DNA of 17,633 nucleotides from Candidatus Sigynarchaeum calidifontis (GCA_030587475.2 JAUQYZ020000045.1:1-17633); one strand, 5' to 3'. Positions 798-17,456 are shown, counted from the first letter of the stretch. Numbers and translations: made by a program. The notes: generated by a model from the sequence alone, not told the origin.

Positions 798-2096
798 ATG
801 AAACTCGAGATCATCGAAGCGGGCGAGGCCGAGGGCCGGGCGTTCGTGAACCCGGAAGACATGAAGTCATTGCGGGTTGATGACCTCGATGTTGTCGTCT
901 TCACGAACGAATACGATGATTGGGGAGCCGCACAAGTCGTCGCCAAGGAGGATTGCGAGCCAGGCTATATCATGATCGACAGCATGACCCTGGATTCCGC
1001 CAACATGTCCTCGGGTGACAAGGTAGAAGTCAAGAAATCCGAACCTAGAGGTGGCATCACCGAGGTCCAGATAGGCGTCGAACCGATGGGCTCGCAAGCG
1101 ACCGAGAAGGCGGTCGTTTGGGTCGCCGACCACGCGTCCGAGATGTCCGAGCTCCTCAAGAACCGGCCCATCTTCCGCAACCTGGAGATCAACTGGCGGG
1201 ATGCCGAGATCGGCCACGTCAAGCTCAAGGTCGTGCAAACCAAGCCCCCCATCCAGCCCGGCGAAACCGCCATCATCGATCCCGCGGGCCAGGAGATCAC
1301 GTTTGAAATCATTCCCGCGGTCGACATGAGCTTCAACGCCATCTTGCTCATCGACGTCTCTGGATCCATGCTCAAGGAAGACATGGAAGTCCACGAGATC
1401 GATGGCGCCATCGAGGGCTTGCGCCGCGGATTCGCCGAGACCAAGGACCTCACCCGGTTTCTCGACCAATTCCGCGAGGGGGACAAGGTCTCCCGCATCG
1501 CCAGCGCGGCGATGGCCACCTTGCTCTACCTGTCGCTCAAGATCGGTCGTGGCTGGGGCGAAAACGTCCAGCTCATCACGTTCGGGGATGATGTCGAGCT
1601 CCTCCAGGTACAAGACAAGAAGGGAAACATGTCCCCGGTTATCGAGTGCACGGGCGAGATGCGGGAGCTCAACTTGAACACCGTGGCATATTATGTCATT
1701 GAAAAATGCAAGAAAGCGACGGGCCTCACGACCATGAGCGTCGCGCTCAAGATCGCTGGTGATCAAGTCAAAGCATTTCCAAAGAACCAGCGCACGGGGA
1801 AACAAAACCCGACCATGATCGTCCTTCTCAGCGACGGGAACCCGAACAAGGGCGACGAGGAACAAGGCATCCCGGTCAACCCGATCCCCGTGGTGAAGCA
1901 GTACCTGGTCCGTGAGGACATCGTCCTCTACACGATCGGCATCGGCGAGGCGGATGATGTTGTCATGCAGCGCATCGCGGACTTGGGCCGGGGCGAGTAC
2001 TTCCGGGCCACCAATTTCAAGGAACTATGGCGATTTTACGACATCCTGGCGCAAAAGTTTTCCATCGCGGCAAAGATCAAGACAGCGAATAAATGA
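798..2096 (+). CDS. CDC48/VAT N-terminal-domain (double-psi barrel plus beta-clam) fused to a von Willebrand factor A domain; no AAA module
   Basis: The N-terminus follows the CDC48 N-domain pattern: LEIIEA...GRAFVNPEDMKSL...GYIMIDSMTLDSANMSSGDKVEVKK, then LKNRPI...LKVVQTKP...II. From about aa 180 there is a vWA with complete MIDAS: LLIDVSGSM (DxSxS), GLTTMSVAL (T), IVLLSDGNPN (D), LYTIGIG, IADLGRGEYF. No Walker A/B. Confidence 0.85.
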   Translation: MKLEIIEAGEAEGRAFVNPEDMKSLRVDDLDVVVFTNEYDDWGAAQVVAKEDCEPGYIMIDSMTLDSANMSSGDKVEVKKSEPRGGITEVQIGVEPMGSQATEKAVVWVADHASEMSELLKNRPIFRNLEINWRDAEIGHVKLKVVQTKPPIQPGETAIIDPAGQEITFEIIPAVDMSFNAILLIDVSGSMLKEDMEVHEIDGAIEGLRRGFAETKDLTRFLDQFREGDKVSRIASAAMATLLYLSLKIGRGWGENVQLITFGDDVELLQVQDKKGNMSPVIECTGEMRELNLNTVAYYVIEKCKKATGLTTMSVALKIAGDQVKAFPKNQRTGKQNPTMIVLLSDGNPNKGDEEQGIPVNPIPVVKQYLVREDIVLYTIGIGEADDVVMQRIADLGRGEYFRATNFKELWRFYDILAQKFSIAAKIKTANK

Positions 2097-3023: not shown

Positions 3024-6000
3024 ATGAACATCCCCTCGACTCCCTTCCCGCAACCTATCGGCAACGAGATGGAGCTGCAGATCGTGAACGACGCTGGGGC
3101 AATATTGCGGGGAGAAGAGCTCATCAAGATCTGGAACGCGATATTCGACAAGATCGAGCTCTCGTTCAAACAAGCCCTTGGCATGGCTCCCGAATACATC
3201 CGAAAGCGAGTCGGGGCGATCAAGCGAGTTACCAAGGAAAAATCGGGAAAACAACTCCCGTATCTCGATATCGAGTACAAAACCTTCAAAACATTCCATG
3301 TTTCGGCGATAGGGCCGGATCCTAACATCAGCCAAGTCACTTGGCTAATGGAACTCGTCACTCCACCAGCCAGCACGATGGAGGAATTCGCCTGGTGGAA
3401 TTCCCTCTTGAACACAGCCCTCGTCAAGTCCTTGCCACCCGGCTACTGGATCTTGCCGCTTGGCTTGAACCCCGCAGAGAAGGAATACTCGAGCGGCGTC
3501 ACTTTTGGCGAGCATTACCACGTCGGCGTCGATGACCCCGGCCTCAAGCTGGCGATCTACACGCTCATCCGCGATTTCATCCCGCATCTCATAGCCCTCA
3601 CCGTGAATTCCCCTTTCATCAACAAGAAGCCGACAGGTGTCGTGAAGGTGACGGATGACGGGAATGGCTTGCAGATCTTGGGAAAAGATTGCACGAAAAG
3701 CTTGCGCTTGTTCTACAACAAGGCTCAGATGGGTCCCGTGGACAAGGAAACGTATATACCTTGCTTGAAAGCACTCGACAAGGATGCCTTCTGCGATGTA
3801 ATCCGCCGTAAACCCCCCGACGACAGGTTCGTGGACATGTACCCGTTCACGCCCTACGGGACCATCGAACTCCGTGTTTTCGACACGCAATTTGCGCTCT
3901 CGCGTCGGCTGGCGATAGTCGCGCTGATCGAAGCGCTGTGTTTGAAGGCAAAACGGCTGCTCGAGCGAGGCGAGAGCATTCCTTGCGTCCTCTCGTCCGT
4001 CTTGATCGCGAACCGCGAGAAAGCTGTTTTATTCGGCTTGCACGGCAAGTTCACGCCGGACACCACGCTACCGGGGTCGTTCGGGATGACCTACAACGAG
4101 GACCCTGCCACGGGCAAGCAAAACGGGAAGTTGTTTCAAGCCGTGAACAGCATGCTTTTTTTCTTGAAAAAAGAGATCGCTGATCTCGGGTTCAAGGAAA
4201 TCTTGTTACCGATACAGATCTCGATAGAAGGAAACAATAAAATCAGAGCACCAGTCACGCCGTCAGATTACTTGCTTTATCTTTCAGAGAAACAAGGTGG
4301 CGATATCGAGAATGCGCTTCACTGTTTCAAGCAACTCCAGGCAACGTATTGCATAGGCTCGCCCAATACTTTGGAAGATCCCCTCGTCGTCGAGTGGGGC
4401 AAGCCTGGAAATGGCATCTCCCAATCGCCAACACACAGGAGTGTTATTATGGCAGAGGCGGTGCCCGCGCCCGCATCGACAGAAATTGATTTCACGGGTA
4501 TTGCTGCGACGGCCACCGAATCCCAGGTCAAGGTTGTAAAGCCGATACCGTTCCAGCTCTCCTTCACCATCGCGTCTTCGCTACCCCGGAATAGCGTTGA
4601 TATCCTCGCGATCCAGCAACTCATAGAGATCCAGAAAAAAGCGGAGATCGTGCTCGCCACGAGCTTCAAGCGATTCGCCGCGCCGGTCAACCAACAAGTT
4701 ACCATCAGTCAGGACGAGTTCCCGCTCGTCCCGGCCCAGGATCTGTTCATCGGGAACAAGCAATGCCGCCTCAAGTTTTCCCTCAAGGATAAGCAAAAGG
4801 AGGCGACCACGTATTCCAATGCCTTCTGGATCGAGTTGCTCCCGAGATATGTAATTACCTCGGAATTCCGGAAGCGAAAGGTGTCTCCTGGTGAAAAGCT
4901 GGATGTCAAGTACAAGATAACGTCGACGAGCAGCACGGCTCCCCTTTCGGCCATACAAGTGGATGTAAAATTCCAAGTGCTATCAGCCGACGGGACGACG
5001 GTCTTGTATCAAACCGACCAACACGCGAGCGTGAAGGATACCGAGACCGTGCAGTTCAAGGTCATCCCGCTTGCATCGTGGAAGGATAGAGAACTCTCTT
5101 TCCGCGTCGTCGCGATGTTGAAGGATAAAATCATCGCACGCCATGAAATCGGCCAGATAATTCTTGACATCCCGGAAGAAATGCCGGACACGTTCACGCC
5201 GCGATTGGTGGAGAAAAAAGCGGAGATAAAGCCGCGAAGCACGGAGCCGGCTGTCCAATCCTCCGCACCGGCCACGGGCGACAAATATGGCCTCGTTAGG
5301 ACGCTCGCGTTCTCCTCGGCTCCCGAAAAGCAAGAACCAAGCACGATGCCGGTAAAGATGCCCGCGCGGGGCCAGCGCGAGTTGAAAATCCCGCCGTCGC
5401 AGCTCAAACGACATGTAGCGGAACCACTGCGGATTATCAATGTCCCGGAAACGATCTCTGCGCCGAAAGTGAAATCGTCAAAGGATATCAAGCCCCTCGT
5501 TTCTACAAGCACGCCTGCACTTGATGAAAAAGCCGAACGCGAGCGCATGGCGAATCTTCTCGCACGTGAGACGACAAGCAAGCCACGTGTAGACGCGAGT
5601 TCGTTGAAGGTGCCATTTCTCGAGGCCGTCGATGCCGCAAGCGCGAAGGTCGAGATCGACGTTAAGCTACTTTCCCCGCGCCTCGTCGCACCGGGGGAGA
5701 AGATCGTCATCGCCTACACAATGAAAAAGACCAAGACAATCGGAGAAAACGAATTCTTGAAACTAATCTCTTTTTTAATGAATATACGTCAAGAATTCAT
5801 CGTTGTCTTGAACGAAAAATACAAATTCCAAGGCGACACCTCGAACTTTACCCTCACGGTCGATCCACAGAAACATTTCAAGGATTGGAAACCAACCGAG
5901 CCGTTCCACGCCGTGCTGCAAGCTTATCTTGACAACACCCTGGTCGGTCAAGCTGTGTACAGCGACTTCCAGCTTGCCAAGTTCACGACCAGTTCCCAGA

Positions 6001-7007
6001 TCACGTGGAAGAAAATCGATCTCCTCTCCGGGACGATTTACCCGGGCATGGACGCGGGCTTCGAGTTCGATCTCGACGTGAAGAGCATCGTGAACCCGGT
6101 TGCCATCGCTATAGAGGCAAGCTGCCAGGGGACGATCGTTACCACGGACTTTATGGTGAAAAAGGAGGGCACGAACCATTTCATCGCACCGTTCAGGGTA
6201 CCATTTCAAGGGCTCATCACCGTGCCCAGCACCCCGATGATCATCAAGATAAAGGACAGCTCGGGCATGACCATAAAGGAACAAAAGAAGACCATTGCCA
6301 TCATCGCCCGGGGGCCCGTGTTCGTCATCAAGGACGTGGTGCTGGACACGATGGAGGGCCTCGACAATGCGACGCTCACGTTCGAGTTCATCAACGACGG
6401 CAAGCTGCCCGTTTCGTGCGACGTGACGGCTCTCGCGATCGAGCCTGGCGGCTCCAGCCACGAGATCGCTTCCCGAAAGCTCAAACTCAAGGGCATGGAG
6501 ATGCAGCACGTGGAATGCACGAAAGTACGCTTGCCCATCAATGCCATCCGTGATAACACCATCATTATCGATTTTCTCATCGAGATCGCCGATTTTAACA
6601 AGATCAAAAACCTCATCCGCCAACACGTGAAACTAGACCCCGCCCCCGGCGAGAAAGTGAACGTTTATTTCCACGGGAAGCTGAAAAACATCGACCGCGT
6701 GCGCGATATCACCGCCTACATCGACAAGGTCGGCATCGAGATAGAAGTGCGCAAGGAGATCACGCTGGGGGGATGCAAGGCGAAGGTTGTCGAGATCGTG
6801 GACGGCGAAGCCCGCAAGGTGATTCACGTGGTGAAATTGCCAAAAGGTCGCGAACGGGTGCACGAGAACATCACTTGGAGGCCGCCGCGCGCGAAAACTT
6901 TCCCCTCGCTTTGCAAGCTCGAAGTGCAATTCTTCCAGGACGATGATCAAGTTGAGATCGATCGCATGCGCACCGAGCCACTCTTTTTCACGATCTTTCC
7001 CGAGTAA
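3024..7007 (+). CDS. GCS2/YbdK-family carboxylate-amine ligase domain (aa ~1-460) fused to multiple predicted beta-sandwich domains and a low-complexity linker
   Basis: Ligase motifs: IGNEMELQIV (GxExE), MELVTP, GLNP, FGEHYHVG, IALTVNSPF...TG, SLR, GTIELRVFD. The C-terminal ~850 aa have alternating-hydrophobic beta strands (e.g. ATLTFEFINDGKLPVSCDVT, LVAPGEKIVIAYTM, KVSPGEKLDVKYKI) split by a P/K/S/E-rich linker (aa ~720-870). No signal peptide or TM helix is evident. Confidence 0.85.
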   Translation: MNIPSTPFPQPIGNEMELQIVNDAGAILRGEELIKIWNAIFDKIELSFKQALGMAPEYIRKRVGAIKRVTKEKSGKQLPYLDIEYKTFKTFHVSAIGPDPNISQVTWLMELVTPPASTMEEFAWWNSLLNTALVKSLPPGYWILPLGLNPAEKEYSSGVTFGEHYHVGVDDPGLKLAIYTLIRDFIPHLIALTVNSPFINKKPTGVVKVTDDGNGLQILGKDCTKSLRLFYNKAQMGPVDKETYIPCLKALDKDAFCDVIRRKPPDDRFVDMYPFTPYGTIELRVFDTQFALSRRLAIVALIEALCLKAKRLLERGESIPCVLSSVLIANREKAVLFGLHGKFTPDTTLPGSFGMTYNEDPATGKQNGKLFQAVNSMLFFLKKEIADLGFKEILLPIQISIEGNNKIRAPVTPSDYLLYLSEKQGGDIENALHCFKQLQATYCIGSPNTLEDPLVVEWGKPGNGISQSPTHRSVIMAEAVPAPASTEIDFTGIAATATESQVKVVKPIPFQLSFTIASSLPRNSVDILAIQQLIEIQKKAEIVLATSFKRFAAPVNQQVTISQDEFPLVPAQDLFIGNKQCRLKFSLKDKQKEATTYSNAFWIELLPRYVITSEFRKRKVSPGEKLDVKYKITSTSSTAPLSAIQVDVKFQVLSADGTTVLYQTDQHASVKDTETVQFKVIPLASWKDRELSFRVVAMLKDKIIARHEIGQIILDIPEEMPDTFTPRLVEKKAEIKPRSTEPAVQSSAPATGDKYGLVRTLAFSSAPEKQEPSTMPVKMPARGQRELKIPPSQLKRHVAEPLRIINVPETISAPKVKSSKDIKPLVSTSTPALDEKAERERMANLLARETTSKPRVDASSLKVPFLEAVDAASAKVEIDVKLLSPRLVAPGEKIVIAYTMKKTKTIGENEFLKLISFLMNIRQEFIVVLNEKYKFQGDTSNFTLTVDPQKHFKDWKPTEPFHAVLQAYLDNTLVGQAVYSDFQLAKFTTSSQITWKKIDLLSGTIYPGMDAGFEFDLDVKSIVNPVAIAIEASCQGTIVTTDFMVKKEGTNHFIAPFRVPFQGLITVPSTPMIIKIKDSSGMTIKEQKKTIAIIARGPVFVIKDVVLDTMEGLDNATLTFEFINDGKLPVSCDVTALAIEPGGSSHEIASRKLKLKGMEMQHVECTKVRLPINAIRDNTIIIDFLIEIADFNKIKNLIRQHVKLDPAPGEKVNVYFHGKLKNIDRVRDITAYIDKVGIEIEVRKEITLGGCKAKVVEIVDGEARKVIHVVKLPKGRERVHENITWRPPRAKTFPSLCKLEVQFFQDDDQVEIDRMRTEPLFFTIFPE

Positions 7008-13447: not shown

Positions 13448-14836
13448 ATGAGCGAGACAGACGAGATAGATCCCTTTTTCACACCGCGAAGCGTCGTGCT
13501 CGTCGGCGTGAGCAGGGACATGGATAAATTCAACGGGATCGTCCTGAAGAACTTGCTAGCCGTTAATTACCCCGGAAAAATATATCTCGTCAATCCCAAT
13601 GCCAAGGAGATCCTTGGCATTAAATGTTATCCCCGCTTGGTCGACCTTCCCGAAATTCCGGAACTCGCCATCATTCTACATTCCGATGTCGGCCGGATCC
13701 TTGAAAATTGCGGCAAGAAAGGCATCAAGCACGTCATCATCCAAGCCGACATCTCGCTTCAAGAAGGGGCAGACCAGGACCGTATCGACAGCACGATAAA
13801 CGAGATTGCTTCTCGATATGATATCAAGTTCATGGGTCCGTCCCTCATCGGGCTGATCAATTTCCCGGGCCATTTCACGTCGTCGCTCATCCCGGTTCGA
13901 GATCACGTGGCTCACCTCGGAGAAGATCCCGCGCGGGCAGCTATCGGGTTCATGGCCCAATCCGGGGGCCTTGCAGGCGCATGCGGGTGGTGGCACCCGT
14001 CGCAAGACATCTCGTTCGCAAAGGTCGTGCATTTCCATGGACAGGTGAATGGGTCCATTCCAGATGGTGCCCTGGTGAAATACATCGCTGCAGATCCGAA
14101 CGTGAAAGTCGTGTCCTTGTTCATCCGCAAGATCACGCAATCGCTGGTCGATGCTGTCCGCGAATGCACTAGCGCCAAGCCCGTCTTGTTCAAGAAATGC
14201 GGGCAGCCGGTCGACGTCGACAAGCTCGTGGCAGCAGGGGCGTTGCAAGTCGAGGAATACATGGATCTCTTCGAGATCGCAAAGGTATTCATTTTCTCGC
14301 CACTCCCCCTGGGCAACCGAATCGGTTTGATAGGGCCGAGCTCCGGCGCGATCGACGTGGTCTTGAGCGAGTTCAAGAAAAACGGCCTGGAGTTAGCCAA
14401 GCCGTCCCCGGAGATCGAACAAAAGATCATCGACTTGCTCGGGGGTCGCGCGGGCAAGCGATGCAATCCCGTGGATTTCTGGCCACCGCCGCGCTTCTTC
14501 GGCCACGAGATAGGCCGCATCCATCTCGAGGCCGCCGAGTACCTACTTTCGGATCCGAACGTCGATGCGATATTCCTTGTTCTCGAGTTTTTCCACGAGA
14601 TCGAGTTCGACTTGCGCATTTTCGAGGATGTACTCGCTCGCCACCCGGACAAGCCCGTCATGGGCGTGCTTATCCAGGCCGAGGAGGACGGGGCGAGCCG
14701 CGTCGTGAAGGCCGCGACGATCTTGAGGATACCCATCTTCTCGGAGCCAGAGCGGCTCGTGCGGGCATATTCGATGCTGTTCCGGTTCTCGCGCGCTCGT
14801 AAGACAACAACAAGACCGAAATCGAGGAAAGAATGA
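13448..14836 (+). CDS. acyl-CoA synthetase (NDP-forming) alpha-subunit-like protein lacking the phosphohistidine segment
   Basis: CoA-binding domain: FFTPRSVVLVGVSRD..K, YLVNPNAKEILGIKCYP. Also MGPSLIG, AQSGG, DPNVKVV, NPVD and DPNVDAI. The expected 'KxGR...AAxSHTG' loop is replaced by KKCGQPVDVD. Confidence 0.85.
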   Translation: MSETDEIDPFFTPRSVVLVGVSRDMDKFNGIVLKNLLAVNYPGKIYLVNPNAKEILGIKCYPRLVDLPEIPELAIILHSDVGRILENCGKKGIKHVIIQADISLQEGADQDRIDSTINEIASRYDIKFMGPSLIGLINFPGHFTSSLIPVRDHVAHLGEDPARAAIGFMAQSGGLAGACGWWHPSQDISFAKVVHFHGQVNGSIPDGALVKYIAADPNVKVVSLFIRKITQSLVDAVRECTSAKPVLFKKCGQPVDVDKLVAAGALQVEEYMDLFEIAKVFIFSPLPLGNRIGLIGPSSGAIDVVLSEFKKNGLELAKPSPEIEQKIIDLLGGRAGKRCNPVDFWPPPRFFGHEIGRIHLEAAEYLLSDPNVDAIFLVLEFFHEIEFDLRIFEDVLARHPDKPVMGVLIQAEEDGASRVVKAATILRIPIFSEPERLVRAYSMLFRFSRARKTTTRPKSRKE

Positions 14837-15735
14837 TGGTTGGAACGGCGAAACCCATCCATGTTAAAATCCACGGGCTCGACATCGGGGATGATTTCCC
14901 CGTACGCATCATGGGGGTCTTGAACGTGAGCCAAGAGAGCTTTTACAAGCGGTCGGTCGTGGATGCAAAGGACATCCTGGTCAAAGCGAAGGCGATGATC
15001 GCCGGAGGGGCCACGATGCTCGATGTCGGTGGCCGCAGCACGGCACCGAACGTGCAACCCATATCCGTTGACGAGGAACGTGCCCGCGTGGTCACGGCAT
15101 TGAAAGCGCTCCTGCCGGGCCTCGATAACGACCGGGTCATTATTTCGATCGACACCCAATTCGAATCCGTCGCTGCTAGTGCAATGGATATCTTCCGATC
15201 GAGCGGCATGGAAAACCAATTCGTCATCAATGACGTGAGCGGGTTGAATGGAGACCCCGATCTCGCCCGTTGGGTCGCCAGGACGGGCAAGCCGTGCATC
15301 ATCATGGCATCTCACGGGAAGCCCGGCGACTCGCTTGGCGTAGAGCAGACTATCGCGGATCTTGGACGCAGCATTTCAAAACTCCGCGCCCTCGGTTATA
15401 ACGTGGAAGAAAAAGTGATCGTCGATCCGGCGATCGGCCGCTGGATCCCCGATAAAGGTCCCATATACGACCTCGAACTGCTTCACGAGCTGGAGCGGTT
15501 CCGAGCCGTCGGCGCCCCGCTGCTTGTTGCCATCTCCCGGAAGTCTTTCATCGGCGAGGTACTCGGAGAAAAGAATCCCGACAACCGCTTATATGGTACC
15601 CTTTCCGCGACTGCCATCGCCGTGTTCAAGGGCGCCCACGTGGTAAGAACCCATGACATCAGCAAGGAGACCCTCGACACGATCAAGGTCGCTGAAGCAA
15701 TCCGAAGGAAAGCCATCACGAAATCATTACCGTGA
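14833..15735 (+). CDS. folP: dihydropteroate synthase (archaeal type)
   Basis: IMGVLNVSQESFY, LDVGGRSTAP, ISIDT, INDVSG, IVDPAIG, ISRKSFIG, VRTHD; ATGA overlap with the upstream gene. Confidence 0.92.
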   Translation: MMVGTAKPIHVKIHGLDIGDDFPVRIMGVLNVSQESFYKRSVVDAKDILVKAKAMIAGGATMLDVGGRSTAPNVQPISVDEERARVVTALKALLPGLDNDRVIISIDTQFESVAASAMDIFRSSGMENQFVINDVSGLNGDPDLARWVARTGKPCIIMASHGKPGDSLGVEQTIADLGRSISKLRALGYNVEEKVIVDPAIGRWIPDKGPIYDLELLHELERFRAVGAPLLVAISRKSFIGEVLGEKNPDNRLYGTLSATAIAVFKGAHVVRTHDISKETLDTIKVAEAIRRKAITKSLP

Positions 15736-16550
15736 CAGATCCAATGGAGATCAAACCAATCAAAACCCCCGTCATCAAGCCCGGCGACGACTTGATCCGG
15801 ATCCTATTGAATTCGATGCAATCTCAAGGGATGTGCTTGAAACCGGGAGACATTATCGTCGCGGGGGAAAAAGTTGTCGCGACCGCCCAGGGACGCATCG
15901 TCGACCTCGCCACGATCAACGAGAACGTCATCCCCGAACAAGCGAAAAGAATTGGCGAGAAGTATCATATCGATCCCAGGAAGGTTAAAATCATCATGGA
16001 CGAGTCAGAGGAGATACTCGGCGGCGTCGACACGGTCTTGCTGACGAGATCGCGTGGGCTCTTACTCGCCAACGCGGGCATTGACTCGTCGAACGCGGGC
16101 AAGAGCACGAATGTTATCTTGTTCCCGTCCGACTTGTGGGGCACCACTCGGCAGCTGCGGGCTGCGCTGGAAAATGCCTCGGGTGTAAAACCCCTCGGGT
16201 TCATGATCATCGACTCGCGCGTCCAGCCGCTGAAGGTCGGCGTGATCGGTGGCGCGCTCGCAGTATCCGGGTTCCAGCCCGTCGAGGACATCCGCGGGCA
16301 GAAGGACATCTTCGGCCGCGTGTTACTCATCAAGCAGATCGCTGTCGCGGATGACTTGAGCAGCGCCGCCGAGATCGTCATGCGCGAGGCTGCGGAGCAG
16401 ACACCATTCGTTCTCGTCCGCGATGCGCCTGTAAAGTTTGTCCCGGACGACCAGATAAATGAAGAGGCCATGATCATGCCCATTGAACAGTGCCTCTTCA
16501 TGAATGTTTTCAAGAATTATAAAAAAGACAAGATCTTGCTTAAAAAGTGA
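15732..16550 (+). CDS. cofE: coenzyme F420-0:gamma-glutamyl ligase family protein (CofE; possibly a FolC2-type pteroate glutamyl ligase)
   Basis: PVIKPGDDL, DIIVAGEKVVATAQGR, NAGIDSSN, IIDS, RGQKDIFGRVL, AVADDLSSAA, EQTPFVLVR; GTGA overlap with folP. Confidence 0.88.
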   Translation: MTDPMEIKPIKTPVIKPGDDLIRILLNSMQSQGMCLKPGDIIVAGEKVVATAQGRIVDLATINENVIPEQAKRIGEKYHIDPRKVKIIMDESEEILGGVDTVLLTRSRGLLLANAGIDSSNAGKSTNVILFPSDLWGTTRQLRAALENASGVKPLGFMIIDSRVQPLKVGVIGGALAVSGFQPVEDIRGQKDIFGRVLLIKQIAVADDLSSAAEIVMREAAEQTPFVLVRDAPVKFVPDDQINEEAMIMPIEQCLFMNVFKNYKKDKILLKK

Positions 16551-16556
16551 TCTTTT

Positions 16557-17456
16557 TTGGCCGAATCGACCGAGGATGTCATTCTCATCCGCCCACCTTG
16601 CGAGGCGTGGTCCGTGCTCATCGGCGTGACCGAGGGTTGTAACTGGGGGAAATGTAGGTTTTGCGGGGTGTACGATGGAAAGCAACTCGTGCAAAGGTAC
16701 CGCGTGCGGCCGTGGGAATCCATCAAGGCGGACATAGACGAGGCATGGTTTTGTCATCAAACGCTCCCCCGGCGAGCATTCCTCGCGGGAGGCAGCGCTT
16801 TAAGTGCGCCGGTCGATTTGTTGGTGAAAACCCTCGATTATTTGCATAAAAGATTTCCGAGAATGGATCACGTGAGTTCCTACGCGAAGAACCATGACAT
16901 TTTGAAAAAAACAGACGATGAACTCAAGCAATTGGCAGATGCAGGCTTGACCATCGTGTACATGGGCCTGGAATCCGGATCGGATGCGGTCTTGAAGTAC
17001 ATGAACAAGGGAACGCGTGTCGCGGGCATGATCAGGGCGGCGAGGAAAGTCATGGCCGCCGGCATCAAGCTCTCCACGTACGTCGTGCTCGGCCTTGGCG
17101 GTAAGATGTTCCCAGATCATCCCTACGAGACAGCCAAGGCATTGACGTCGATGAATCCCACGTTTATACGTTTCAGGAGCCTCAATTTCATCCCGAACGC
17201 CCCATTGCACGACGATTGGATGGCGGGCAAGTTCGTGGCTTTGCGGCCCGTTGAAATATTACAAGAACAACTTGCGATCCTGGAACACATCGGCCCAGAA
17301 GTCACTTCTCGTGTCCTCAACGACCACGTGTCCAACTTTGTAGATATCGACGGGCAGCTCCCCGGCGACAAGGAACGCATCACGAATATATTGAAAACCT
17401 TGATTGCCGACCCGCGCATCCAGGCCCTTGAACATAGAAATCGGACGGTAATGTAA
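16557..17456 (+). CDS. radical SAM protein (RPPxEA...CxxxxCxxC subtype), function unknown
   Basis: RPPCEAWSVLIGVTEGCNWGKCRFCGVY, FLAGG, YMGLESGSD.VL..MNKG, VVLGLGG, DHVSN; TTG start 6 nt after the cofE stop. Confidence 0.9.
   Translation: MAESTEDVILIRPPCEAWSVLIGVTEGCNWGKCRFCGVYDGKQLVQRYRVRPWESIKADIDEAWFCHQTLPRRAFLAGGSALSAPVDLLVKTLDYLHKRFPRMDHVSSYAKNHDILKKTDDELKQLADAGLTIVYMGLESGSDAVLKYMNKGTRVAGMIRAARKVMAAGIKLSTYVVLGLGGKMFPDHPYETAKALTSMNPTFIRFRSLNFIPNAPLHDDWMAGKFVALRPVEILQEQLAILEHIGPEVTSRVLNDHVSNFVDIDGQLPGDKERITNILKTLIADPRIQALEHRNRTVM

Follow-up and report, generated by a model that had tools for sequence, protein, structure and literature searches.

A giant YbdK/GCS2-type ligase with an Ig-like arm and its putative partner proteins in the Asgard archaea

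What does a carboxylate-amine ligase that depends on ATP act upon when its catalytic domain makes up only a third of the protein and most of the remainder is an array of β-sandwiches? This question is raised by a gene in a stretch of 17,633 nucleotides from “Candidatus Sigynarchaeum calidifontis” (GCA_030587475.2 JAUQYZ020000045.1:1-17633), which is here called the window. The gene, located at positions 3024-7007, is an open reading frame (ORF) on the plus strand of 1327 codons from its ATG start, and is separated from the upstream gene by a non-coding gap of 175 bp. Its product, P0001, contains a ligase domain at amino acids (aa) 1-460, followed by two β-sandwiches, a disordered linker of about 140 residues, and four more β-sandwiches; the part that follows the ligase domain is here called the arm. 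An original prediction, made from the sequence alone, had described a GCS2 core followed by an arm without an export signal, and had proposed that the enzyme modifies proteins. Our results confirm the observation and support its interpretation in part. As judged from comparative sequence data, the ligase belongs, as its catalytic component, to a module of three genes that is specific to the Asgard archaea, and the other two genes code for a Cdc48N-vWA protein and an Amidohydro_2 hydrolase, and its substrate may be a protein.

The ligase domain and its relatives

The ligase domain is the best conserved part of P0001, with a mean pairwise identity of 63% as compared to 37-48% for each of the arm domains and 21% for the linker. 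In a Pfam scan of the protein, GCS2 (PF04107) was the only family identified, with a score of 28.4 bits (cut-off 21) over aa 158-205 only, and there was no match to carbohydrate-binding families, A2M, or PF03136. All relatives of P0001 carry PF04107. The NCBIfam models for the YbdK family and the glutamate-cysteine ligases matched two stretches (approximately aa 160-206 and 270-343) with E-values down to 6.6e-19 but with scores far below the curated cut-offs. P0001 falls short of the cut-offs for the YbdK subfamily TIGR02050 (68.3 bits, cut-off 176.4) and for the equivalogs NF010039-40 (55-58 bits, cut-offs 371-425), and the GshA equivalogs also scored far under their cut-offs.

All of the motifs named in the original prediction were found. 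E15xE17 (nt 3066-3074), E110, H164xH166 (nt 3513-3521), S226xR228, and E282xR284 (nt 3867-3875) are fully or almost fully conserved in an alignment with 19 diverged relatives, and the ExE, E, HxH, and ExR motifs align with the metal/ATP motifs of YbdK. Enzymes with the glutamine synthetase/glutamate-cysteine synthetase (GS/GCS) fold activate a carboxylate as an acyl-phosphate at the metal/ATP site, and the attack of an amine then yields an amide. P0001 has the fold and these four motifs in common with the YbdK/GCS2 ligases (PF04107; 1r8g, 1tt4, and the plant enzyme 2gwc), and presumably also the acyl-phosphate chemistry. Taken at the level of sequence and predicted structure, aa 1-460 represent an active-looking ATP-dependent carboxylate-amine ligase of the YbdK/GCS2 type. 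The arm accounts for two thirds of the protein and matches structural Ig/MG arrays, which could suggest that the protein serves chiefly as a structural or scaffolding array of Ig-like domains with a ligase domain that is a pseudo-enzyme or moonlights. We consider this very improbable, since every catalytic motif is invariant or nearly so across about 19-35 diverged sequences and the ligase is better conserved than any other part.

In a profile search against the PDB, the only clear relatives with a solved structure were YbdK of E. coli (1r8g, E 2.4e-12) and the Salmonella counterpart (1tt4). The AlphaFold2 model of aa 1-470, based on the 19-sequence alignment, has a predicted local distance difference test score (pLDDT) of 88 and a predicted template modeling score (pTM) of 0.92. 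When this core was compared with the PDB in Foldseek, the YbdK-type structures 1tt4_A and 1r8g ranked first (E 5.6e-15; query/target template modeling (TM) scores 0.59/0.76), followed by 2gwc, 3nzt, and 1v4g, with the plant and bacterial glutamate-cysteine ligases (GCLs) at E-values of 1e-9 to 1e-6. PafA (4bjr; E 4.7e-6, TM 0.42/0.41) came behind YbdK and all GCLs; Dop had an E-value of 7.6e-6 and weaker, and GmaS and the glutamine synthetases 2.5e-4 or weaker. The ESM Atlas contained one matching cluster for the core, a GCS2 protein of 986 aa from Thorarchaeota (TM 0.90). PafA, GCS2, and YbdK have been grouped in one carboxylate-amine ligase superfamily (Iyer et al. 2008, PMC2588565). The comparison to PafA and Dop that was made in the original prediction is not borne out, as the core is nearest to YbdK.

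That the closest structures are YbdK and the GCLs, and that all metal/ATP motifs are kept, suggests another substrate: the ligase may amidate a free metabolite, for instance by γ-glutamylation of an amine or in the making of a γ-Glu-Cys-like thiol or a similar compound. The identity to YbdK is only 17-18%. However, the NCBIfam scores are far beneath the YbdK and GshA cut-offs, and the Arg in the DIRP loop of YbdK has been replaced in the whole family. The loop is V-D-M-Y-P in P0001 (Y273) and contains a Phe in the short paralogs described below; an invariant residue, R268, is located three residues ahead of the Asp in this loop. The family has conserved segments beyond those in YbdK, at aa ~22-100, 203-246, and 338-370.

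A three-gene module in the Asgard archaea

The gene for the Cdc48N-vWA protein lies 0.9 kb upstream of the ligase gene in the window. The residues of its metal ion-dependent adhesion site (MIDAS), D186xS188xS190, T311, and D346, are invariant in 16 vWA orthologs. ORFs were called in 25 ligase loci of different families and clustered by BLAST, which gave exactly three recurrent protein families: the ligase (25/25), Cdc48N-vWA (17/25), and Amidohydro_2 (15/25). The Amidohydro_2 proteins are TIM-barrel proteins of about 470-515 aa, all 15 of which match PF04909 (best E 1.5e-18), and their metal ligands (HxH, H, H, D) show little or no variation. The Cdc48N-vWA genes located by the ligases in the window, in loci L002, L004, and L019, and beside a short form of the ligase labeled Heimdall (L021) code for orthologs with 30-81% identity over their full lengths. 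They evolve far more slowly than the ligases: the proteins from the window and L002 are 81% identical as compared to 46% for the ligases, and the corresponding values for the window and L004 are 80% and 41%.

The ligase, the vWA protein, and the hydrolase show near-identical patterns of presence and absence at the family level across 400 Asgard genomes. All three are present in each genome of families f1 (3/3), f20 (5/5), and f21 (6/6). The ligase, Cdc48N-vWA, and the hydrolase were identified in 11, 10, and 11 of the 14 genomes in f3, in 115, 110, and 113 of the 135 genomes in f4, and in 12, 12, and 7 of the 12 genomes in f18, where the hydrolase scores lie at the strict threshold. None of the three was found in f9-f15, f17, f19, and f22-f27, or in the genera g8 and g17. 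These counts should be read as a description of the pattern rather than as a statistical test, since genomes that are related do not represent independent samples.

About 60% of the 400 sampled genomes contain the module, which has been duplicated as a unit: f20 and f21 contain two full paralogous sets, in which each ligase gene is located beside its own copies of the vWA and hydrolase genes. In most lineages, the three genes are neighbors or located close to each other. They form an operon in the order amidohydrolase, ligase, vWA in f16, and are adjacent and convergent in f20, f21, and f8. In f18, the hydrolase gene abuts the ligase gene and the vWA gene is about 7.4 kb off, while in f31 a pair of vWA and hydrolase genes is located about 7.4 kb from the ligase gene. 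The distance from the end of the vWA gene to the start of the ligase gene is 33 bp in a genome of the same genus (G281, locus L008). In the window, the vWA gene is the only module partner linked to the ligase.

A ligase, a hydrolase, and a protein partner would parallel the writer and eraser of the PafA/Dop system (PF03136), which has the same superfamily fold. In a PafA-style system, the ligase would conjugate a small protein tag via its C-terminal Glu to lysines in target proteins. Consistent with this, PafA and Dop are among the Foldseek matches, and the Cdc48N domain is a ubiquitin- and adaptor-binding fold in Cdc48 and Ufd1. Yet, YbdK is a far better structural match than PafA, the hydrolase is a TIM-barrel Amidohydro_2 protein rather than a paralog of the ligase, and no linkage to the proteasome was seen. 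Neither PF03136 (Pup_ligase) nor PF05639 (Pup) had a match in this genome, of which 89% is covered by the assembly and in which a short disordered tag could escape the search. Similarly, no conserved ORF of 30-95 aa was found near the module in the 25 loci, with the same limitation for short disordered tags. Tagging with a Pup-like protein is very unlikely in our opinion.

Predicted contact between the ligase and the Cdc48N domain

The complex of the ligase (aa 1-470) and the whole vWA protein was predicted with alignments of our own, for which the calibration of the interface score, ipSAE, holds only roughly. The complex obtained an ipSAE of 0.67 (0.64, 0.67, and 0.68 in the three runs), as compared to 0.00 for the best of three controls; in the calibration, 58 of 80 solved complexes attained this mark, as did 2 of 110 mismatched pairs. 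The three runs had at least 44% of their contacts in common, and the pLDDT of the partner was at least 83.

On the partner side, the predicted interface is located in the Cdc48N domain only (aa 39-41, 65-74, 96-98, 127-128, 154, and 175-176). On the ligase side, it is divided between two segments (Table 1). The invariant residues in the first segment include K208, L219, K221, D240, and K241, and those in the second are N330, G338, L339, G341, F343, and G368; all five of the former and G341, F343, and G368 of the latter are covered by the interface. The HMMER alignment to YbdK skips aa 206-242 and reaches just the start of the second segment. We know of no solved complex between a GCS2 ligase and a Cdc48 N domain, and it is therefore unlikely that the predicted contact merely reproduces a known structure. 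The predicted complex suggests that the Cdc48N domain binds to conserved stretches of the ligase core and that the MIDAS site is left free.

Distribution and phylogeny of the ligase family

P0001 has 12 full-length relatives with 38-70% identity at 100% coverage, labeled as Lokiarchaeota/Lokiarchaeia, Hodarchaeota, and Promethearchaeota, while proteins of about 1141 aa from Thorarchaeota have only the ligase third in common with it. When 1.84 billion representative proteins were searched with a hidden Markov model (HMM) of the arm, 13 matches were obtained. No fewer than nine of them are fusions to GCS2 within the family of P0001; among the others are one truncated copy and a pair of short fragments, and none of the 13 contains another known domain. 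In a collection of 5.8 billion proteins, all close relatives of the core are labeled Asgard, except one partial record labeled “Bathyarchaeia”, and the family is restricted to the Asgard archaea in all searches save for this record.

The ligase family was identified in 256 of the 400 Asgard genomes, with sizes of about 550-585, 980-1095, 1140-1190, and 1230-1410 aa. The form of about 560 aa consists of the ligase core and an N-terminal extension, but no arm. One such short ligase is encoded by contig C207 of the “Ca. Sigynarchaeum calidifontis” genome (G000) and is 33% identical to the core of the giant. A maximum-likelihood phylogeny of the cores contained two well-supported clades (100/99), one of which includes the short forms and the forms of 1140-1190 aa, and the other the forms of 980-1090 aa and the giants of 1230-1410 aa, including P0001.

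We asked whether a neighboring gene encodes the arm in lineages with tail-less ligases. However, no match was obtained when the arm profile was aligned with hhalign to both neighbors of the short ligase P0060, one of which is the amidohydrolase. Since the tail-less paralogs keep the same core and partners, and since one of them is found in this very genome, the arm appears to be an accessory that serves for reach, docking, or localization rather than as part of the chemistry. The argument in the original prediction that a tail is needless for a small-molecule ligase, and that the substrate is hence a protein, is weakened by how common these paralogs are.

The short ligases have extensions of their own. 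The paralog on contig C207 (L025:7659-9488) is 609 aa long and has a helical N-terminus followed by a Q-rich linker. A match to the MIT domain in this protein (E 0.0018) was below the cut-off and seen in 1 of 16 short forms only, and was dismissed. A Snf7/ESCRT-III gene (L025:14479-15321) is located about 5 kb away. Most short ligases, including P0060 (L020:7001-8698), have a polylysine N-terminus, and the Heimdall-labeled P0053 (L021:7001-8623) has a C-terminal hydrophobic membrane anchor. The vWA orthologs that are paired with short ligases are longer than the 432 aa of the protein in the window. The second vWA paralog of this genome, on contig C26 (L042:5692-7449, minus strand), is 585 aa long, of which about 155 aa form a C-terminal extension, and the orthologs in f3 and f4 (L044:3205-5361; L045:2837-5131) have 718-764 aa with N-terminal extensions of about 310-350 aa.

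The Ig-like arm

The AlphaFold2 model of the arm contains six β-sandwiches, here named A to F (Table 1), in the “2 + linker + 4” order that the original prediction had read from the sequence. A short helix is predicted at aa ~834-847 of the linker, and two invariant residues, P864-F865, are located right behind the linker. Alignments of the domains with hhalign suggested that only B and C are marginally alike (E 1.7e-4), and an origin of the arm by internal repeats was rejected, as none of the six domains appears to have been recently copied from another. The sequence alignments indicate that the arm is constrained, with each sandwich distinct and individually conserved. Domain-wise HMMs for A and F still detected the long forms in other Asgard families with E-values of 1e-10 to 1e-3, including f21 (1e-5 to 1e-10), f2 (4e-9), f20 (7e-10), and f8 (2e-4) for domain A, and f21 (1e-6) and f2 (2e-6) for domain F. 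The arms are thus homologous but fast-evolving. The acidic C-terminus (...FTIFPE) is kept only among close relatives, and the idea that it represents a ligand for the MIDAS or a substrate of the enzyme itself was dropped for this reason.

The structural matches to the arm are many and tied, which suggests a generic Ig-like array without a diagnostic functional fold. Foldseek identified MG arrays of complement and α-2-macroglobulin, ciliary ASH-type arrays, and mastigoneme, with E-values of 1e-16 to 1e-13 but TM scores of only 0.1-0.2. In the VIA comparison, GH2 Ig-like domains, MG1-3 of C5 and C3, the barrels of protein 4.2, factor XIII, and TG3, PECAM, RbmA, and VPS26 were all tied at Z-scores of 10-11; for example, sandwich B matched RbmA with a Z-score of 10.4 and a root-mean-square deviation of 3.2 over 104 aa. 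A specific identity as arrestin/VPS26, transglutaminase barrel, or MG domain was rejected for the same reason. The original prediction had viewed the arm as a scaffold that resembles arrestin, adaptin-ear, and TRAPP sandwiches. The non-catalytic sandwich array, compatible with the cytoplasm, holds up, while the likeness to these folds is non-specific. The tandem sandwiches resemble those in α-2-macroglobulin, the C3-C5 components of complement, and the C-terminal barrels of transglutaminases; however, these matches are tied with unrelated Ig/FnIII arrays, no sequence family is matched, and P0001 contains no thioester, CUB domain, bait region, or secretion signal.

Could the arm instead be of a surface adhesin-like or carbohydrate-binding type (CARDB/MG/GH2-type Ig) on an exported protein, or be joined to the ligase by an assembly error? 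The language-model features of the tail are CARDB/NPCBM_assoc-like (0.90-0.91), which is a lead only, and GH2 Ig-like domains and bacterial α-2-macroglobulin are among the tied structural matches. A tail matching a known carbohydrate-binding or secreted module would speak against the original prediction; such domains occur among the generic structural matches, but there is no specific match. Also, P0001 has no segment at the level of a transmembrane helix (maximum Kyte-Doolittle value 1.49 over 19 aa) and no signal peptide, as its N-terminus is the ligase domain itself, an ATP-dependent enzyme. These findings agree with the lack of an export signal noted in the original prediction. Finally, the fusion is conserved in full length in independent Asgard assemblies and is found on four contigs for this exact protein, and an assembly chimera was hence rejected. 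Of all the explanations considered here, an exported or chimeric protein is the most improbable.

Neighboring genes

The gene for a PQQ-type protein between the vWA and ligase genes seems to have been inserted recently between the two partners, given the gap of 33 bp in G281. In loci of the Thor type (L006:7323-7994; L035:6087-6740; L036:6608-7276; L039:6849-7556), the gene immediately upstream of the ligase gene codes for a protein of about 220 aa for which no Pfam hit was recorded, and is unrelated to the PQQ-type gene in the window.

The membrane protein gene that starts 10 bp past the stop codon of the ligase gene is 66% identical at the protein level to the gene in the same position by a ligase labeled Hodarchaeota (L005:5941-7956), as compared to 44% for the ligases. 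The window and L005 also share the following two genes on the minus strand (259 aa and 124 aa). We did not count this gene as a member of the module, as it is located beside the ligase in two related loci only, as part of a longer syntenic block. Likewise, the block of cofactor-related genes downstream recurs 3' of the ligase in the Loki-type loci L002 and L004, and its first two genes in L005. A functional tie to the ligase was rejected in favor of macro-synteny, since the intervening genes vary and the loci in f16, f20/21, f8, and Thor have no such block. Its absence from the ligase loci of other lineages suggests that it is probably a cofactor operon of its own.

Table 1. Positions in the window of the ligase gene, its domains and conserved segments, and the neighboring genes
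Feature	Position (nt)	Strand	Evidence and remarks
Cdc48-type N domain (aa 1-~175) and vWA domain	798..2096	+	Pfam; 432 aa; MIDAS intact
PQQ/BamB-type β-propeller fragment, 209 aa	2219-2848	+	Between the vWA gene and the ligase gene
Whole gene, ligase-plus-arm protein of 1327 aa (P0001)	3024..7007	+	Open ORF; stop codon 7005-7007; full-length relatives with 38-70% identity
YbdK/GCS2-fold carboxylate-amine ligase domain, aa 1-460	3024..4403	+	Pfam, NCBIfam, PDB profile match, AlphaFold2, Foldseek, motifs
Ligase segment, aa 203-246 (β-hairpin 206-221 and loop)	3630..3761	+	First half of predicted interface: 206, 208, 219-222, 233, 240-242
Ligase segment, aa 329-369 (GLHGKF ... TGKQNGK)	4008..4130	+	Second half of predicted interface: 329, 333, 336-337, 340-343, 365-369
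β-sandwich A, aa 487-605	4482..4838	+	AlphaFold2; best conserved arm domain between lineages
β-sandwich B, aa 606-718	4839..5177	+	AlphaFold2; single FnIII/MG domains matched in VIA
Disordered Pro/Ser/Lys-rich linker, aa 719-860	5178..5603	+	AlphaFold2 pLDDT ~30; composition
Linker motif KYGLVRTLAFS, aa 754-764	5283..5315	+	Alignment; L761 and F763 invariant; pattern KYGLVxxLxFS
β-sandwich C, aa 862-985	5607..5978	+	AlphaFold2
β-sandwich D, aa 986-1096	5979..6311	+	AlphaFold2, alignment; opens with invariant FTTxxQ
β-sandwich E, aa 1097-1210	6312..6653	+	AlphaFold2, alignment; opens with invariant GPxFxI
β-sandwich F, terminal, aa 1212-1327	6657..7004	+	AlphaFold2
Polytopic membrane protein, 755 aa	7017-9284	+	No Pfam family; starts 10 bp past the ligase stop
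CoA_binding_2/Succ_CoA_lig-like, pterin-binding (DHPS-like), CofE-type F420 ligase, and radical-SAM genes	13448-17456	+	

Discussion

We tentatively favor the view that the module acts on a macromolecule, with the arm and the vWA protein recruiting or holding the target and the hydrolase reversing or feeding the reaction. The ligase would put an amide-linked mark on its target, probably a protein or a peptide, and the mark would most simply be a glutamate-type or other amino-acid or carboxylate adduct. The target would be held or selected by the arm and the vWA partner, whose Cdc48N domain would dock on the ligase core and leave the carboxylate-binding MIDAS site free for another ligand, and the hydrolase would remove the mark or prepare its substrate. 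The idea of an action at the protein level, which was part of the original prediction, gains support from the linkage and co-inheritance of the ligase with the Cdc48N-vWA protein and the amidohydrolase, and from the predicted binding of the Cdc48N domain to the core. A protein-directed ligation, including protein glutamylation, is a plausible hypothesis. A more specific version, namely an Asgard-specific reversible protein modification in which the ligase writes on proteins held by the arm, the MIDAS reads or presents the acidic group, and the Amidohydro_2 protein erases it, is in itself rather unlikely.

The partner protein resembles the vWA-MIDAS adaptors of MoxR-type systems (CbbO, NorD, and ViaA) and the N domain of Cdc48/VAT in that it has an intact MIDAS and a Cdc48-type N domain. 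In the known systems, the MIDAS binds an acidic residue of the target protein and the Cdc48-type N domain binds adaptors or substrates. In contrast to these systems, no AAA+ ATPase is fused to the Asgard protein or consistently adjacent to it, and the predicted binding partner of its N domain is the ligase.

Several results weigh against an action on a macromolecule. By structure, the nearest match to the core is YbdK, which acts on small molecules, and PafA and Dop are much more distant; the fold matches of the arm are generic, and no conserved tag ORF was seen near the module in the 25 loci. The tail-less paralogs are widespread and the hydrolase gene is still located beside them. In the “Ca. 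Sigynarchaeum calidifontis” assembly, the hydrolase gene is single and unlinked (contig C88:9839-11437), as compared to two ligases and two vWA paralogs. Moreover, several near-complete genomes in f4 (for example among G199, G204, G223, G236, G240, and G243; some of them 94-100% complete) have kept the vWA gene, while the ligase and the hydrolase were not found. The f4 pattern may be explained if the ligase and the hydrolase are gained or lost jointly and the vWA protein also acts without them. The modifier subunit of the eukaryotic GCL provides an example of a non-catalytic partner of a small-molecule enzyme.

A small-molecule pathway is accordingly a serious rival, although we find it somewhat doubtful. 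The Amidohydro_2 protein would then make or hydrolyze an intermediate, as has been proposed for FluG and for bacterial γ-glutamyl-amine pathways, the vWA protein would act as a subunit that regulates or modifies the ligase, and the arm would only scaffold or localize the enzyme. Such a pathway could explain the short tail-less paralogs located directly beside the hydrolase gene in many genomes. It also has a precedent in FluG and its bacterial relatives, in which an Amidohydro_2 protein is paired with a GS-fold γ-glutamyl ligase and thought to handle a γ-glutamylated metabolite (PMC6478659). These FluG/NodGS-type pairs resemble the Asgard module in the genetic coupling of the Amidohydro_2 protein to an ATP-dependent amide ligase with the GS fold, and the function of FluG is likewise not settled (PMC6478659). 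Here, however, the ligase is of the GCS2/YbdK type rather than GS type I-like, the genes are separate rather than fused, and there is a third, non-enzymatic component, Cdc48N-vWA, and an arm of Ig-like domains. Hits to the GshA family in InterPro have been noted in Asgard genomes in a review of archaeal thiols (PMC7278568), which would also fit with a metabolite.

On the other hand, the ligase differs from YbdK by its arm of 870 aa and its two partners, and the Cdc48N-vWA protein co-occurs and co-duplicates with the ligase and is predicted to dock on it. To our knowledge, a Cdc48N-vWA protein with a MIDAS has no role in metabolite synthesis. The variety of localizing appendages in the family (Ig arms, polybasic N-termini, and the membrane anchor of P0053) and the replaced Arg in the DIRP loop also argue against a free metabolite. 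An action of the module on a macromolecule remains our preferred, if tentative, reading.

No paper on this ligase family or on the three-gene module was found in a search of the full-text literature. The chemistry of amide ligases of the GS/GCS fold is known, while the family, its Ig arm, and the fixed partnership with Cdc48N-vWA and the hydrolase are undescribed in the literature found. The presence of the module in about 60% of the sampled genomes, and its duplication as a unit, make it a major and conserved part of Asgard cell biology that awaits an explanation. If the product of the module is a metabolite, this would be a compound specific to the Asgard archaea, with a protein-binding adaptor tied to its synthesis. 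If proteins are marked instead, the lineage that gave rise to the eukaryotes would have a novel system of post-translational modification. If that modification proves to be reversible, it would represent a third independent invention of ATP-dependent protein tagging, next to those of the ubiquitin-like type and of Pup, among the prokaryotes most closely related to the eukaryotes.

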